Numbered from the stretch's first letter, positions 1 to 6,504 are shown. The stretch: 64,000 bases of DNA from Candidatus Latescibacterota bacterium (GCA_965208835.1 OZ242358.1:4928001-4992000), one strand, 5' to 3'. Made by a program: numbers and translations. The notes: generated by a model not told the origin, from the sequence alone.

Positions 1-3000
1 GGCGCGCGGCGACGGCGAGCTTGCCGCCGGCAGGCGGTACGGCCGTGCGTCCGAACGATGCCGCCACGGTTGCGTAGTCGGAAAAGTCCACGACCCCGTC
101 GTCATTCACGTCGGCCTGCGGGTTGTAGGCCGCGTCGCCCCTCCGGGCGCCGAAGGCGCTCGCGAATGCGACGACGTCCTCGAAGTCAAGCTCGAGGGTG
201 CCGCCGCCGGACGGAAGCACGATGAGGTAAACCGGATCGCCCGCGGCGTCCACGAACTTCGCGCGGACGGAGATGTTGTCCACGGTGACCAATTGACCGG
301 GCGTGACGTTGTCGTCGTCAAACGCGTCGATGCGATAGGCCAGAGACGCCACGCTGTCCGGCAGGTGCTCGTCCGCGAACCCCGTGGAACCCGGAGGCAG
401 CGCGGCGATCTCCTCGAGGTCATCCGCTGTCGCGCCCCGCATCACCCTGTAGCCCTTCACACCCGGGACCGGAATGCTGTAACCCCGAAAGGGCCAGAAT
501 CCGACCGTCCGGTCATCGGCCGAAGCCGTCCACCGCAGTACCACACCGCCGGCGCCTTCGCCGCTGACGCCGGTAACCGGGGCGGGAGGAATATTGTCCA
601 CGGCGCCGGCCGGCGCCTCCGTAACCGTGCGGGCGGATACCAGCAGGCCGCCGCCCCCGGTGGACGTCCGGAGATGCTTCGGAACCGGGGCGCTGCCCGC
701 CAGTGCGCCCGCGTTGGGACGAACGGGAACAAAGACCAGGTCCCTCCGATCGCCGACGACGGACCCGGCGACGTCTTCGGGCGCGACGGACCCGTCCATC
801 GGTTCCTCGACCGACCGGACCGGTTCGTGCGGGATACCCAGCAGCCGTAGCGTCCGCTGTACGCTCTCCCTCGTAAAGACGCGCTTGCCGGGCGCGGCCG
901 CATCCGACCTGCCTCCGCCCCCCACGGACCTGACGCCCCAGCGGGTGGCCGCGTTGTCCAGCGCGGGGATCACGGCGCGCAGCAAGGCCCCTCCCGGGTC
1001 ACCGGTTTCACCGCCGCTGTCCGCGGCCGGGACGATGCTCGCCCAGTGCATCCACACTTTACCGGGCACTTCGCCGTGGACTTCGTTTCCTTCCTCATCG
1101 TACCCCTTGAGCGTCGTCTCGACTTCCCTTTCGATCAGATAGCGAATCACGGCGCCGTTCCGCGCGGGTTTCGGAAAGCCGATCAGCACCATGCCGCCCT
1201 GATCGCCCTGACCGTCCGCGCCAAGATAGTCCGCGACCACGATGTTCGCGGGCGCGGCCGGGGCGCCCGGCGCCGATCCGGGACCGCCCCCATGCGCGAA
1301 ACTCACCGTCACGCTGCCCGTCAGCGCGCCGGTCACGGCATCGCCGCCCGTACCGGTGACCAGGTCCCGGTCGACCGTGCGCACGGCGATCGTGGCGCTG
1401 CCTTCCAGATCGGCGGCCACCGCGCCGAAATCGGCGCCGCCAGCCGTTACTTCCTGCCGGCCGAAGGGCACGGTTACCGCGGCGTTGCTGGAAGCGAACG
1501 CAACGGCCACCGATTCATACGTCGCCGAATCGGGCGTTGGATCGATCTTCATACTCGGGTTGCCGAACTCGTCCGCGGGAACCACACGGACCGTAAACGC
1601 GCCGGAAACGGCGCCTGTAGCGTCGCGGCCCTCGATGGCCGTTACCACAAACCGGGACATTTCGGAGGCGCCGACGTGTACGAGGCCATCGAGCCACCCC
1701 GCCGTTGCCAGGGAGTCGGTGCCGGTGACCGGGTCGCTGAATCCCGCCTCGGCCATCACGGTGACGTTTCTGAGCGGTTTTGTCGATGTGAAACTGACGT
1801 CACGCCGGCCCGCGTTCCATCCGTCGCCGTCCAGAACGGCGGCTCTCGCCACCATGCCCGCGCCGGCCAGGTCGGCGGGGAGGGAATAGTCCGGCGCATC
1901 GGTTACGCCGGCCCCGCTGAAGCTCACGCCGGCGAGCGCGCGGGCCTGGTCTCCCGAAACGATGACCGCCAACGCCGCAACCCGATGATAGGTCACTGCG
2001 GGAACGTCGGTTTCCTCGTTGCGGGTCAGTGAGGTGTCCAGCGCGGTAATCCGCACCGAGAATTCCTGACCGGCAACCACGGAGTCCGCCTGATCCGGCG
2101 CGGCGGCGACCTTGAATACGTCGGCGTTCGGATTCAGGAAGCCCCTGGTGAACGTGAGCGTCCCGCCGTCGGTCACGCTGGCGTTGCCGGCGAGGTCGAT
2201 CGCCAGAATCTGCAGGTCGTACCGGGTCCGGTCCAGGAATCTCGTATCGTCCACCGGCCAGCTCGCAAGTACGCCGGTGGACTCCAGCCGGCGGTTGCCC
2301 GGGCCGAAACGCTGTACGACGGCCGCGCCGCCGCCGGTCTCGACGTAACGGATGGAAAGGGAATCCAACGCCTCGTCGATGGTGAAGACCGGATTTCGGG
2401 TGGCCAGGTTGATGGTGGGCTCGCCGCCGTTGTCCGCGTCTCTGGGCGCGGCGGCAGCGGATGGGAACAGCTCACCGATCACCGGCGCCTTCTCATCGTA
2501 CCAGATGCCCTTCAATTCCATCGAGGACATGTTCCCGAGGCTGTCCCAGACCTCGATCGTCAGGTCTGCCCGTTTCCCGCCGGCCCTGCCGTATTTCCAG
2601 GGAAGACCGAGCACGGCAGTGGAATCGCTGCCGGTTGGCGCCATACCCTCATCGGGTGCGCCTGCGTCATCGATAGCGACGCTGCCAATGCCGTGGGTGC
2701 TGTCTCCATGGGTGATCCTGATCGAGTCAGGAACTTCGCTGAGTTCAAACTCAAGCGGCTTCAACCTGCGGTTGGTTTGAACACCCTGTTCCTCGCCTGG
2801 CAGGGGTATATAACCCGAAAGCGTTTGCGTGACGGCCGCCGAGATCCGGTCATCCATGTTGTCCGGATGGGGGTGGACGATCGCAATCCGCGGCCGGGTC
2901 GCGTCCGCGATCCATTCCACACCGTTGGGATCGAAGACACCGGCCATTCCGTGCCCGGCACTGACGGGAGATGCGGTCGGAGCATCCATCGAAGTGCCGC

Positions 3001-3934
3001 CCAGGTTTCCGGCGGGATCCACGAGGTAGGCTTCGACGCGTACCCGCCGGTTATCGGCAAAATCGCCTTCCTCAAGTTCCTTCGAAGCCCGCAGGTTCGC
3101 GCTGTATAACCTGTCTCCGAGAATCTCAAAGGAAACCGGCGCCGTGGAAAACGCAGAGTCTTCCTCCACGATTCCCGCCCGAATGCCGTACGCTCCCGAA
3201 TTGATCACATGGCCGGTGTTGAGATCGAGTCTGATCCGGATTTCGTCTCCAATTCCGAACCTCACGCGTTCAATCAGCCCGGCCTCCGTGGTATCGACAC
3301 CCAGGTCTTCCGTTACAACGGAGAACGACGTGAACGCGCCCGTGTGGACCGGGCGATTGGCGTCGATGCCGAACCGCACCCCGTCGCCGACCCTGCTGGC
3401 GCCGAAACCCGAGGACGCGGGAGTGATCTTCCTGTCGTTCATCAGGTTGTTCAATTCGTTACCGGTCGTGATCGCGTCGAGGTCGACCACAACCTTCACC
3501 GCCCGGTTGTCTTTCGACCCAAAGGCTGCAGCTTGCGGGGATACGGTTATGGAAATACGGAACGTATCGACACCTGATGCCTCGCCGTCGCCAAACGTGA
3601 CGCCGTCCGGCGGATCAGCGGAATCGGGTATATATATATTGTAATAGATAAACCCATCGTCGTCGTCGGTCCCGCCGGGCGTGGCGCCGACGTCGTCGTC
3701 GTCGAGCGTTGCGTCAACCACCGAGACGCGGAAGCCGTGGTCGAGAATGCCATCGTACGTCAGAATGCGGATTTCGATCCGGTCGTCGATTCCAACCCAC
3801 GTACCGGCGGCAGGTTTGTCGACGCGAATTGCGATACCCTTCGTGTCCGCGACTTCCTGCGGCCACGCGACGCGGACAAAGCCAACAACCATCTGGAACG
3901 CCAGAACCGGACCCAGAACCCTGCGCAGCGCCAT
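1..3934 (-). CDS. Large secreted acidic protein (>1310 aa, C-terminus beyond window) with a dockerin-like double EF-hand motif near the window edge
   Basis: ATG at 3934 follows a GGAGG RBS. N-terminus MALRRVLGPVLAFQMVVGFVRVAWPQE is signal-peptide-like. No ORF-track entry ends in this frame, so it is open to the edge. Near 60-190 it reads LDFEDVVAFASAFGARRGDAAYNPQADVNDDGVVDFSDYATVAASFG. Confidence 0.85.
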   Translation of the reverse strand, partial: MALRRVLGPVLAFQMVVGFVRVAWPQEVADTKGIAIRVDKPAAGTWVGIDDRIEIRILTYDGILDHGFRVSVVDATLDDDDVGATPGGTDDDDGFIYYNIYIPDSADPPDGVTFGDGEASGVDTFRISITVSPQAAAFGSKDNRAVKVVVDLDAITTGNELNNLMNDRKITPASSGFGASRVGDGVRFGIDANRPVHTGAFTSFSVVTEDLGVDTTEAGLIERVRFGIGDEIRIRLDLNTGHVINSGAYGIRAGIVEEDSAFSTAPVSFEILGDRLYSANLRASKELEEGDFADNRRVRVEAYLVDPAGNLGGTSMDAPTASPVSAGHGMAGVFDPNGVEWIADATRPRIAIVHPHPDNMDDRISAAVTQTLSGYIPLPGEEQGVQTNRRLKPLEFELSEVPDSIRITHGDSTHGIGSVAIDDAGAPDEGMAPTGSDSTAVLGLPWKYGRAGGKRADLTIEVWDSLGNMSSMELKGIWYDEKAPVIGELFPSAAAAPRDADNGGEPTINLATRNPVFTIDEALDSLSIRYVETGGGAAVVQRFGPGNRRLESTGVLASWPVDDTRFLDRTRYDLQILAIDLAGNASVTDGGTLTFTRGFLNPNADVFKVAAAPDQADSVVAGQEFSVRITALDTSLTRNEETDVPAVTYHRVAALAVIVSGDQARALAGVSFSGAGVTDAPDYSLPADLAGAGMVARAAVLDGDGWNAGRRDVSFTSTKPLRNVTVMAEAGFSDPVTGTDSLATAGWLDGLVHVGASEMSRFVVTAIEGRDATGAVSGAFTVRVVPADEFGNPSMKIDPTPDSATYESVAVAFASSNAAVTVPFGRQEVTAGGADFGAVAADLEGSATIAVRTVDRDLVTGTGGDAVTGALTGSVTVSFAHGGGPGSAPGAPAAPANIVVADYLGADGQGDQGGMVLIGFPKPARNGAVIRYLIEREVETTLKGYDEEGNEVHGEVPGKVWMHWASIVPAADSGGETGDPGGALLRAVIPALDNAATRWGVRSVGGGGRSDAAAPGKRVFTRESVQRTLRLLGIPHEPVRSVEEPMDGSVAPEDVAGSVVGDRRDLVFVPVRPNAGALAGSAPVPKHLRTSTGGGGLLVSARTVTEAPAGAVDNIPPAPVTGVSGEGAGGVVLRWTASADDRTVGFWPFRGYSIPVPGVKGYRVMRGATADDLEEIAALPPGSTGFADEHLPDSVASLAYRIDAFDDDNVTPGQLVTVDNISVRAKFVDAAGDPVYLIVLPSGGGTLELDFEDVVAFASAFGARRGDAAYNPQADVNDDGVVDFSDYATVAASFGRTAVPPAGGKLAVAAR

Positions 3935-4299
3935 CGCCAACCTCCGTGTGAATCAGACCGTTCCCGTTAACCCGCCTTGCGGCGACCGAACCTCAGTCGG
4001 CGGCAAGTACGGCAAAATGCATGCCAGCGGATGGCGGAACGCCGGGACGGGTGACGCGGGAAGGATGACAACGTGAGTTGGGCGAGACGGGGATGCGGGA
4101 GACGTTGACGCCGCGGTTGCGGAAACCTGCGTCGACGCTGCGCTGGAAGGCGATATGGCGGGGAGTCGGGACAGAAACGCTGCGGCAGATACGAAAGATG
4201 CCTCAGCCATCAGGGAGATTCATGGCGTGAGGCATCGGGAGGCGAGATACGAAGGAGGATGGAACTTTTCGTTCAATTGGGTGAAAGAAAGAGGCTAAT

Positions 4300-4468
4300 G
4301 GCGGGCAGAGGTGAGAGGGGAGACGTTAGACGGGAGAGATTACCTGCCTTGAGAGGATACATTTCGTGCCGAAGGCAAGGAGGAAAAACATACCGGGCGA
4401 GGATTTCTTCTCCCGTCTCACCTCTCCCGTCTCCCCGCCTTTTTTCTACCGTCTTACCTCTACCCGCC
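4300..4468 (+). repeat. Heptamer-arm/hairpin-core intergenic element, copy 1 (core type A)
   Basis: Left arm ggcggg-cagagg-tgagagg-ggagacg-ttagacg, core attacctgccttg...tgccGAAggca...gggcgaggatttc, right arm cccgtct-cacctct-cccgtct...acccgcc. Confidence 0.9.
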
Positions 4469-4478
4469 TTTCGGCCGG

Positions 4479-4922
4479 CTATTCCTTCACAACCCACACC
4501 TTCACTGTGGCGCTGACGTCGGCGTGAAGCCGGATGGAGACGTCGTAGACGCCGAGAGCGCGGATGGGTTCCTCTAGCTCGATCAACCGCCGGTCGATCT
4601 CGAAGCCCTGCTCGACGAGATGCTCGGAAATGTGCTGCGTGGTCACGGAGCCGAAAATATGGTCTTCCTTGCCCACCGCAACCGGTATGGTGCAGGATGC
4701 CTTTTCGAGCTTCTTCGACAGCGCCACGGCGTCGCGCTGGGCGCGGTTGTGGCGGGCCTCCTTCTGGCGCTTGAGCTCCTCGTAGACCTTCATATTACCC
4801 CTGCTGGCGACGAGGGCCAGATTCCGGGGGAGGAGGAAGTTCCTGGCGTACCCGTCCTTCACGTCCACGACGGACCCGGCATCGCCCAGGTTGTCCAGTG
4901 TTTCGGTAAGAATGATTTTCAT
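4479..4922 (-). CDS. rplI: 50S ribosomal protein L9
   Basis: MKIILTETLDNLGDAGSVVDVKDGYARNFLLP and IFGSVT motifs; position after rpsF-rpsR. Confidence 0.98.
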   Translation of the reverse strand: MKIILTETLDNLGDAGSVVDVKDGYARNFLLPRNLALVASRGNMKVYEELKRQKEARHNRAQRDAVALSKKLEKASCTIPVAVGKEDHIFGSVTTQHISEHLVEQGFEIDRRLIELEEPIRALGVYDVSIRLHADVSATVKVWVVKE

Positions 4923-4980
4923 AGTGGTTCCCTTTCCATCTGCGCATTGGCCAAATGGCTGTTTGCGTTAGTAATTGAAA

Positions 4981-5010
4981 GAGGGTAGACGTAAGACGTA
5001 AGACGGGAGA
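4981..5010. repeat. Isolated heptamer arm downstream of the four-helix-bundle gene
   Basis: gagg-gtagacg-taagacg-taagacg-ggaga, the same heptamers as in the element arms. Confidence 0.85.
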
Positions 5011-5071
5011 TGATATGAGTGCCCTATCGGCTTAAAAGATGTAAAAACAATGGCTAAGTTATCCGCCTGGG

Positions 5072-5431
5072 TTAACGTGAAACTTTGCTAATCAATCCTG
5101 ACAGCAAACCAAACATTCGGTTCATTGTTTCTGTTATTGACTGAACGTCATCCTCCGAACACAATTGGAGGTTTAGTGCAATTTCAAGCTGAGTATCCAA
5201 CTCAACCAACGAACTCCTGGCTATTTCGAGAAATCTTCTACGTTCAGAATTCGAAGATCTCGCTGATCCTTCGGCGATGTTGGACGGTATTGAGACAGCA
5301 GATCGTCGCAACTGGCTGGTAATGCCAAAAAGCTCGGTGGAGGGGAATTCAGCGGTCAGGGTATAAATCTCGTTAACCAGATCAATGCTCTTTTGCCATA
5401 CTACAAGCTTCTTGTGGCTGAGTTCCATCAT
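5072..5431 (-). CDS. Four helix bundle protein (23S rRNA IVP family PF05635 / Avd-like)
   Basis: Family signature HKKLVVWQKS...FPSTELFGITSQLRRSAVSIPSNIAEG...FLEIARSSLVELDTQLEIA. GC is about 42-43% in two 60-nt lines counted, well below the flanking genes. Confidence 0.93.
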   Translation of the reverse strand: MMELSHKKLVVWQKSIDLVNEIYTLTAEFPSTELFGITSQLRRSAVSIPSNIAEGSARSSNSERRRFLEIARSSLVELDTQLEIALNLQLCSEDDVQSITETMNRMFGLLSGLISKVSR

Positions 5432-5502
5432 TGTGTCTTGGGTCTATCCTTTTTGACCCGCCACGGGACCAGGCAGCGAGGTTCTTTCTCCCAAGTCTTC
5501 CC

Positions 5503-5743
5503 GAGGTTAGACGAAAGACGTAAGAGGGGAGAAGACCACACCACACCCCACCTCCTGGTGAGACGTGAGCCGGGAGAGGGGGAAAAAACCGGGTAGACGG
5601 GAGACGTAAGACGGGAGAAGATGTCCTCGCCGGCTATCTTATCCCTCCTTGCCTCCGGCACGAAAAGAAGCCGCACAAGGCAGGAAATCTCTACCCTCTA
5701 CCGTCTTACCTCTTCCCGCCTTTCTTCTACCGTCTCACCGCCT
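5503..5743. repeat. Heptamer-arm element copy 2, with C-rich module; core inverted (on - strand, ~5617-5692)
   Basis: Reverse complement of ~5617-5692 reads agatttcctgccttgtgcggcttcttttcgtgccGGAggcaaggagggataagatagccggcgaggacatc. Right end abuts the rpsR stop codon. Confidence 0.9.
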
Positions 5744-5968
5744 TTACGACATGCTGTCCGTTGCAAAAGGCAACAGCGCGATCTGGCGGGCGCGTTTCAG
5801 GTGCCGGGTGAGGCTGCGCTGGTGCCGGGCGCACGTTCCCGATACGCGCCGGGGAATGATCTTTCCGCGGTCCGTGACGAACCGCTGCATCAGCCGTACG
5901 TCCTTATAGTCTATCGTCAACGCCTTGTCTTCGCAAAATCTGCAAACCTTCACCGTGGACCGGTTCAT
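5744..5968 (-). CDS. rpsR: 30S ribosomal protein S18
   Basis: CRFC...IDYKD...[15 protein letters not shown]...HQR...KRAR..ALLP. Confidence 0.98.
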
Positions 5969-6354
5969 GCTCCCTCCTCGTTCTCGACGCCGCTTTCGTC
6001 TTCCTCTTCCTCTTCGCCGCCATCCGCTTCGTCATCCTCGACCTCTTCCGGTTCTTCCTCCACCGGGGTTTCGTCCAGAACCACCAGGTGCCGCAGTAGG
6101 GACTCATCCAGCTTGAGTACGCGGTCGATTTCGGGAAGGGCCTCCGGCGGAGCCTCGAACCGGACGAACGTATAGTCTCCGCGGTTCTGCTTGCCGATAT
6201 CGTAGGCAAGCTTGCGGTTGCCCCAGCGATCCACCTCCACCGAGCGGCCGCCGCCTTCGGAAACGAGGCGATCGAAGCGCGCGACGAGATCGTCGACCGT
6301 GCCATCGGGCGCCTGCGGGTTGACAATGAGCGTGAGTTCGTAACGTCTGGACAT
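5965..6354 (-). CDS. rpsF: 30S ribosomal protein S6 with acidic tail
   Basis: RRYEL..I..P, WG.RKLAY.I motifs; ATGA overlap with rpsR. Confidence 0.97.
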
Positions 6355-6415
6355 GGAACCTCCCCCTGGACAAGTGGCCCGCGGGCAGCCCGACCGGGCG
6401 CGCGCGAGCGGGGTA
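6355..6415 (-). promoter_or_regulatory. Putative S6:S18 autoregulatory leader (rpsF leader)
   Basis: Minus strand reads ccccGCTC...GGGCCActtgtccagggGGAGGttccATG: a stem, a CCR motif, and a cccc able to pair with the SD region, as in known rpsF leaders. Confidence 0.65.
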
Positions 6416-6458
6416 ATTGGGAAAACAGCTATCAGTGGTCAGACAAAAGCGAAAAGGC

Positions 6459-6483
6459 GGGCGACCACAAGGGTCGCCCCTAC
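6459..6483 (-). repeat. GTAG-type REP palindrome
   Basis: gggcgacc-acaa-gggtcgccc-ctac (GTAG tag on - strand). Confidence 0.8.
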
Positions 6484-6504
6484 AAATACAATGTCGTTGC
6501 AGGA

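Follow-up and report, generated by a model that had tools for sequence, protein, structure and literature searches.

Why does a small, AT-rich gene sit between two ribosomal protein genes, and does it belong to the repeats around it? The question arises at 4981..5450 in a stretch of 64,000 nucleotides (nt) from Candidatus Latescibacterota bacterium (GCA_965208835.1 OZ242358.1:4928001-4992000), hereafter the window, from whose first letter positions are counted unless stated otherwise. A preliminary description had noted there a gene of family PF05635 framed by heptamer arms and had proposed it as the coding form, or the driver, of a family of short elements. We are highly confident of a structural reading in which the gene lies in a cassette that would run, in order, from a heptamer purine arm through a leader of about 55 nt, the PF05635 gene and a trailer of about 60 nt to a complementary arm, in sense orientation in the spacer of the rpsF-rpsR-rplI operon. 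The explanation that we favour for it, which we consider evenly balanced between right and wrong, is an intervening sequence (IVS)-type selfish cassette: it would be the gene-carrying member of the (AGACGNN)n foldback family of this genus, read through from its host operon, insulated by RNase III and spread with the help of its own protein. The parts of this copy are as follows.

4983..5012, minus strand: 3' arm of four AGACGNN-type heptamers (pyrimidine on the gene strand), matched by nhmmer.
5013..5071, minus strand: trailer from the stop codon to the 3' arm, cassette-specific, about 60 nt.
5072..5431, minus strand: PF05635/TIGR02436 four-helix-bundle gene, an intact open reading frame (ORF) of 119 amino acids (aa).
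5432..5485, minus strand: leader, which separates the ATG from the 5' arm remnant and includes the words atagacc-caagaca at 5433-5448.
5486..5502, minus strand: 5' purine arm in a decayed state, with two to three degenerate heptamers, placed by alignment with the intact arms of two sister copies (L015 and L016).
5500..5535: extra solo arm, nhmmer 16.2 bits, oriented as a direct and not an inverted repeat of the 3' arm.

Membership in PF05635/TIGR02436 was taken as a score above the curated cut-off across the whole model of about 106-109 positions. The 119-aa protein scores 128.3 bits against PF05635 (23S_rRNA_IVP; cut-off 33.8; positions 1-105 of 106) and 123.4 bits against TIGR02436 ('four helix bundle protein'; cut-off 24), so the family first assigned to it is borne out. 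So is its AT-richness: GC content is 0.41-0.475 over 4900-5399 and 0.55-0.65 alongside. Among solved structures, 2gsc_A (XCC0516 of Xanthomonas; E 6.7e-29, residues 5-117) is the closest in sequence; an excerpt of PMC4990558 describes it, through a citation, as a homopentameric ring. The protein is the sole ORF of the cassette, which encodes no recognisable transposase, and a PADLOC run gave no match for the cassette.

The 3' arm is strong. Window positions 4978-5031 match positions 95-148 of a profile of the genome's foldback repeat (26.4 bits), a match that takes in the arm and about 20 nt of the trailer. These arm-proximal 20 nt or so resemble the end of the foldback core, and a 16-nt motif of the trailer beside the arm occurs only at this genome's two cassettes. 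The arm starts about 60 nt past the stop codon, not directly after the gene as first described. The 5' arm is found 55-71 nt before the ATG, and here its profile match is below significance. In L015 and L016 the 5' arm is intact and, on the strand of the 3' arm, aligns to model positions 8-61 and 12-56; gene, leader and trailer thus replace the apex of a foldback unit. In total, the similarity between cassette ends and foldback repeat extends past the heptamers: it covers model positions 8-61 on the upstream side and 93-148 on the downstream side, all on a single strand.

The layout proposed in the preliminary description, arm-core-arm with the ORF as the core, therefore holds at the 3' end and fails for the 5' arm that it had named. 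That arm was the atagacc-caagaca stretch just before the ATG, and both of its AGAC words occur in only two same-site copies among the eight aligned, with one more copy close; the real arm is the decayed one further upstream. Copies in other gene contexts share a block that corresponds to window 4986/4995 to 5450/5457, nearly the span of 4981..5450 originally given. This window's copy is old: its 5' arm has decayed and its gene is still intact.

Two observations concern the upstream side. A 62-nt leader segment (5444-5505) is 93.5% identical between the genome's two cassettes, compared with 84% for the gene, and is also retained in the deleted cassettes of two relatives described below (G002 and G005); a role as functional RNA or as a binding site is possible. 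The solo arm at 5500-5535 resembles the 3' end of an adjacent unit whose remainder has been lost, and the same arrangement recurs in L003 and L012.

The arms belong to a dispersed family. Pairs of AGACG at period 7 number 273 in the genome and those at period 14 number 170, against 4-34 (both strands summed) at each spacing that is not a multiple of 7, an enrichment of about 10-fold at period 7. A pattern of three AGACGNN heptamers has 68 matches in this genome and its reversed control none. The nhmmer profile, built on 124 full-length copies, gives 452 strand-hits that resolve into 214 loci, 183 of which hold a conserved core of about 70 nt. Each unit is a palindrome of about 160 nt: it opens with an A-run, has about four AGACGNN heptamers as its purine arm before the core, and closes with the complementary pyrimidine arm followed by a T-run. 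A PF05635 gene is present in 2 of the 214 loci.

The window is the densest part of the genome for this family, with 21 of the 214 loci (16 with the core); the 100-kb bin around it holds 30, and the genome average is about 4. On the foldback element, an Rfam search over 3800-6500 gave two sub-threshold resemblances to microRNA precursors (24 bits, cut-off 73; 22.6 bits, cut-off 100), which we rejected as a known RNA family, since they reflect a long hairpin. We also rejected identity of the heptamer family with the genome's 164-nt miniature inverted-repeat transposable element (MITE), since the sequences are unrelated. The MITE has 237 BLAST hits, 88-99% identical among the matches listed, and one copy (3749195-3749358) is inserted in the apex region of a heptamer foldback, splitting profile positions 8-85 from 87-176.

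Cassettes of the same kind stand elsewhere in this genome and in its relatives. This genome has four PF05635 genes. One of them lies in a second cassette of the same type (5107537-5107896), which shares with the first 482 nt at 84% identity in addition to the leader segment. Beside this second cassette (L003 1906-2075, or about 5107969-5108138 in its own genome) are an arm, the start of a cassette-type trailer and about 130 nt of unique sequence, which looks like a second, gene-less unit in tandem. Among the relatives, PF05635 genes occupy 31 loci in 17 of 31 genomes, and AGACGNN arms adjoin 8 of the 31 loci. All eight armed copies encode one 119-aa subtype, type A, and all eight are intact, with a dN/dS ratio of 0.10-0.33 (27 of 28 pairs computable); the type A protein is therefore under purifying selection and in use.

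Type A copies are found at three junctions, all between co-oriented genes and always with the cassette in the orientation of the host genes. The rpsR-rplI junction is occupied in G000 (this genome), G011 and G006 and in the records behind L112 and L113; that between an HlyD-like gene and an ABC ATPase gene in G000, G014, G003 and G008; and that between an L25(Ctc)-like and a Pth-like gene in G013 (L014), both names being read from translations and not from Pfam. Arms, leader and trailer are common to seven of the eight copies; by BLAST, L014 shares the gene only, and its arms stand at other spacings. Inheritance and relocation involve the whole stretch from arm to arm, leader, gene and trailer included.

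The HlyD-like/ABC junction shows both replacement and loss. Of 15 genomes, four carry type A with AGACGNN arms, four carry another subtype (type B), five have no intact gene, and two are unreadable at a contig end or for want of a neighbour gene. The type B protein is 40-43% identical to type A, and all three readable type B spacers hold GCTGANN arrays. Three gene-less spacers (G012, 246 nt; G002, 345 nt; G005, 390 nt) still carry the leader together with both ends of the gene (the start with the first 7-11 codons, and the last codons) and, beyond these, the trailer and the 3' arm; G012 additionally retains the cassette's own 5' arm. These spacers are internally deleted cassettes, and they show that the direction for these units was from coding to non-coding.

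The host junction itself is described by five further features.

5965..6354, same strand as the gene: rpsF, upstream in the rpsF-rpsR-rplI operon.
5744..5968, minus strand: rpsR (ribosomal protein S18), the upstream host gene (PF01084, E 1e-24).
4479..4922, minus strand: rplI (ribosomal protein L9), the downstream host gene (PF01281 and PF03948).
5557..5742: gene-less foldback element, complete with both arms and core, immediately after the stop codon of rpsR, nhmmer 154.6 bits.
4308..4472: a second complete element of this gene-less kind, immediately after the stop codon of rplI, nhmmer 158.7 bits.

The two gene-less elements are 82% complementary over 131 nt (5557..5742 against 4314-4444). 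The rpsR-rplI spacer measures 821 nt here and 17 nt in a distant relative (L122), which agrees with the earlier view that the gene interrupts this junction. In 11 close relatives the spacer is 325-1102 nt long and the gene is present in two, so that the comparison with relatives proposed at the outset finds a nearly empty site in L122 and nine close relatives without the gene; rplI is 82-96% identical among the closest. One relative (L133) has a plain short element at the orthologous spot, with its pyrimidine arm ending about 57 nt before the rplI start, as the arm of the cassette does here. The shared ends, this plain element and the internally deleted cassettes together support the proposal that the gene is the coding form of the element family.

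ORFs of at least 60 aa were listed for 10 relatives whose rpsR-rplI spacer lacks the gene, and none looked conserved (no Pfam scan was made of them). Three of these spacers (L115, L116 and L121) contain a further conserved stretch with similar spurious ORFs that include 'IRAMHKAGPAP', which suggests another repeat family in the same spacer. No rRNA was found by Rfam over 3800-6500.

Does the tie between gene and heptamers extend beyond this genus? We surveyed the 31 loci of the relatives together with the best 80 of 585 relatives from one-genome-per-species contigs, a sample ranked by likeness to this protein and not a random one, of which 109 loci were usable. The controls were 213 shifted windows from the same loci, and 220 nt were compared on each side. 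A period-7 array stands within 220 nt of the gene at 70 of the 109 loci (on both sides in 38) and in 12 of the 213 control windows, so the enrichment of flanking heptamers that the preliminary description anticipated is present. The inverted-repeat score between the upstream and downstream flanks exceeds 18 at 41 of 109 loci and in 2 of 213 controls. Of the 218 flanks, 108 hold an array of period 7, 20 of period 8 and 10 of all other periods. The arms are tandem heptamers with lineage-specific words such as CCAGTAG, AGTTCAC, GTGGCCA, TAGGCAA and GGAAGAA. Inverted period-7 arrays with lineage-specific words surround the PF05635 family across phyla.

Within single genomes the same holds. At a stricter threshold, this 5.18 Mb genome has 167 period-7 arrays and at most 41 of any other period from 4 to 12. 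The words at its four PF05635 genes are AGACGNN twice, GGAGTGA once and AAGAATT once; with all four genes within 300 nt of a period-7 array and only 167 such arrays genome-wide, chance adjacency was rejected. In a Desulfobacca-labelled genome (G031), arrays adjoin eight of nine PF05635 loci and show seven different words, two of which form dispersed families (CCAGTAG, 148 matches; TAGGTTT, 74; reversed controls 0). In G032, which has a single PF05635 gene, AGTTCAC has 107 matches and its reversed control none. The flanking heptamer was thus the word of an abundant family, as had been predicted, in all three genomes looked at, which belong to different phyla. Other arms are private: five of six CTGAGTG matches lie at their own cassette, and AAGAATT occurs only at L004.

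Two side observations concern arrays away from the gene. An inverted CCAGTAG array pair in G031 (L193; G031:C7:66-603) has its members 343 nt apart and no PF05635 match between them, and may be decayed or enclose different cargo. This genome also has 41 period-8 tandem arrays (e.g. at 1557422, 2003222 and 4727030), with words such as TTCGTAGT and CTCGTAGT; none adjoins a PF05635 gene.

The favoured explanation assigns these parts a way of life. The cassette would be expressed by read-through from the host operon, with no promoter of its own; a promoter scan found no sigma-70-like promoter upstream on the gene strand, using a consensus that may not fit this phylum. The only RNA library that touches the gene (run X1) contains a 256-nt contig that spans 5078-5243 with 8 differences and another contig over rpsR, contigs that cannot show strand, ends or transcription and may derive from DNA in the library. 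Contig joints at the locus were set aside as cross-matches between repeats, as their sides measure at most 43 letters, most of them below 30, and lie within repeat arms. In intact copies the arms would pair in RNA and be cut by RNase III, keeping the insert harmless, by analogy with the IVS of Coxiella. The ring-forming protein would recognise its own heptamer array, as the co-variation of protein type and word suggests. Together with host replication or recombination enzymes, it would promote copying of the arm-bounded unit and of its gene-less derivatives into further spacers.

For the stem, sister copies at another junction (L012, L015 and L016) have significant pairing between their flanks, with z scores of -4.0, -2.9 and -3.2 against shuffles. 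The build of a 23S IVS, complementary ends that enclose an ORF in a stem, is present at the window's copy in decayed form.

Several results weigh against the favoured explanation. The flanks of the window's copy pair no better than shuffles (z +0.6), nor do those of the other two rpsR-rplI copies (z -0.7 and +0.3). This copy forms no stem because its 5' arm has decayed, and RNase III insulation therefore cannot apply to it now. The short elements' 70-nt core matches the cassette leader and trailer weakly, over about 20 nt at each end, too little to prove that all 183 core-bearing elements descend from cassettes. The 214 repeat copies have diverged (about 75-85% alike), which speaks against a recent burst. 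We know of no catalytic motif in the 119-aa bundle. There is no PF00078 reverse transcriptase match in this 97.8%-complete single-contig genome, and no PF01797 (Y1 transposase) match in it or in the arm-rich relatives G011 and G013, so any copying would need host replication or recombination enzymes. The reverse transcriptase partner encoded in trans, suggested in the preliminary description, accordingly has no candidate here.

Arrays and gene also come apart. A relative that is 98% complete in one contig (G019) matches the AGACGNN pattern 679 times and yields no hit to PF05635 even at E<=1. G005 and G012, with 35 and 11 AGACGNN matches, have deleted cassettes only and no intact gene, and G018 has two PF05635 genes without AGACGNN arms. 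In G019, G005 and G012, therefore, arrays are maintained, and may even multiply, in the absence of the protein. Protein type and heptamer may co-vary through common descent of each cassette and not through recognition. G019 is not a clean counter-example, because its arrays share the word and not the core and, in 12 loci viewed, are mostly long and one-sided and not inverted pairs.

Judged from sequence, the evidence that the protein drives the arrays points both ways: co-variation of type and word speaks for the driver first proposed, and G019 goes part of the way towards the array-rich, gene-less genome that was named in advance as telling against it. That the protein acts on its own arms at all seems to us somewhat less likely than not. 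Possible, though doubtful, is the broader proposal that PF05635 paralogs each bind their own 7-nt word and, with host enzymes, create, maintain and disperse arm-bounded units, with the foldback repeats as their non-autonomous offspring.

Rather unlikely, in our view, is that the gene is a passenger. Here the repeats would spread by slippage, by recombination or through the enzyme of another mobile element, while the gene lands in them or is captured and moves by recombination between arms, its protein having nothing to do with them. The arrays without an intact gene in G019, G005 and G012 fit this well, as does the rarity of the gene among the repeat loci of this genome, and the plain element of L133 is as well explained by insertion of the gene into a pre-existing element. 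In G019, too, 13 AGACGGR heptamers and a small GC hairpin come after a gene for a Y1 transposase of the IS200/IS605 type (L177; G019:C1:3764692-3768051, about 2037-2120), an adjacency that may be chance given 679 matches in 5 Mb; the arm-rich G000, G011 and G013 have no such transposase. The passenger account is strained by the constancy of the association: AGACGNN arms at all eight type A copies, leader and trailer at seven, three independent junctions, and a different word with type B at the same junction. Random landing would mix words and protein types, whereas the nine paralogs of G031 have seven words. Private arms such as CTGAGTG and AAGAATT indicate that arms come with the gene.

Improbable is a protein that serves the host, a trans-acting binder of arrays at operon spacers (a global regulator or RNA chaperone) with autoregulatory flanking sites. 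Strong purifying selection and the placement of arrays between co-oriented operon genes would suit it, and the Geobacter metallireducens genome paper (PMC2700814, in part) suggests unidentified global regulators as the binders of paired hepta- and octanucleotide sites. A regulator would hardly be as patchy within one genus as this family, present in 17 of 31 genomes and lost as an intact gene from G005 and G012, or have a GC content foreign to its host. Several mutually exclusive types at one junction, many paralogs with private words, array-rich genomes without the gene and the occurrence of the family inside rRNA genes as excised inserts also count against it. Highly improbable is an Avd protein of a diversity-generating retroelement displaced from its reverse transcriptase: the similarity is weak (NF033474, 22.2 bits; PF22296, 20.7 bits; phrog_3206 'Avd protein of DGR', E 1.2e-7, the only PHROGs match), both curated cut-offs (80 and 40 bits) are missed, the genome has no PF00078 match and the neighbours are ribosomal protein genes.

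What is at stake in the favoured explanation reaches beyond one spacer. To our knowledge, no function has been established for PF05635/TIGR02436, a very widespread family of small proteins for which structures have been solved, and ORF-bearing rRNA IVSs have gone unexplained since the 1990s. Over-represented heptamer repeats have been reported for one genome at a time. The locus may tie together this family, those IVSs and over-represented heptamer repeats. If PF05635 proteins each read their own word, one mechanism would account for the IVS protein family, the ORF-bearing rRNA IVSs and the lineage-specific heptamer repeats; recognition of its own array would make the protein a new programmable repeat-binding module and the cassette a transposase-less style of selfish element. 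If that is false, the cassette is still a recurrent and apparently undescribed occupant of operon spacers that annotators would do well to recognise. To this the locus contributes the tie to a foldback family, two protein and word types at one junction, a deletion series from coding to non-coding and an array-rich genome without the gene. The two types, the deletion series and the gene-less array genome, a natural control, are unusually clean test material.

We found no paper in the literature that describes the heptamer-armed PF05635 cassette as a class or links PF05635 to flanking heptamer arrays. The known systems each resemble it in part. Excerpts of PMC10053308 and of a preprint (bioRxiv 10.1101/2024.02.27.582315) present PF05635 proteins as uncharacterised, Avd-like and encoded in rRNA intervening sequences. 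In the 23S helix-45 IVS of Coxiella burnetii, tandem GACAGAT heptamers precede the S23p ORF and an RNase III site lies at the first repeat (PMC4990558, in part). The 23S IVSs of Coxiella, Leptospira and others, as far as these excerpts describe them, thus share with the cassette the PF05635 protein, a unit of about 0.45-0.5 kb, an ORF between complementary ends and, in Coxiella, tandem heptamers on the 5' side. Unlike them, the cassette stands in the spacer of a protein operon, between rpsR and rplI and not within an rRNA helix; the arms are part of a dispersed family of 214 loci with a conserved non-coding core, and the stem of this copy has decayed. Avd proteins share the four-helix-bundle fold family and a weak profile similarity, and differ in the cut-offs that the protein misses and in the reverse transcriptase that this genome lacks.

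Abundant heptamer repeats, often convergent pairs between co-oriented genes, are described for Xanthomonas (GGGAATC) and Nostoc (GGGGAYT) in an excerpt of PMC4692102. Paired hepta- and octanucleotide sites in Geobacter metallireducens are attributed to unidentified regulators (PMC2700814, in part). In these excerpts such repeats, like ours, are dispersed arrays of about four 7-nt units, often convergent pairs capable of forming stem-loops, and most stand between co-oriented genes; the arrays here differ in being tied to a coding cassette. The main-text portions of PMC4692102 and PMC2700814 name no protein as associated with the repeats and none of the PF05635 family, a statement that does not extend to the supplementary gene lists of PMC2700814. 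Repetitive extragenic palindromes and bacterial interspersed mosaic elements with their associated tyrosine transposases (REP/BIME with RAYT) are likewise high-copy intergenic palindromes at operon spacers, and differ in that no Y1 (RAYT-type) gene is found here or in two arm-rich relatives.

The last comparison is with pairs of MITEs and autonomous elements and with foldback elements. The cassette differs from them in having no transposase domain and in ending in tandem heptamer arrays instead of unique terminal repeats. No target-site duplication was identified at the cassette, where no systematic search was made, and the arms abut host stop codons and ribosome-binding sites. The resemblance lies in the population: many short non-coding palindromes, rare coding copies that share their ends, and deletion derivatives. 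As in a MITE family, coding and non-coding copies here have their ends in common, and the deleted spacers show non-coding copies that are internal deletions of coding ones.

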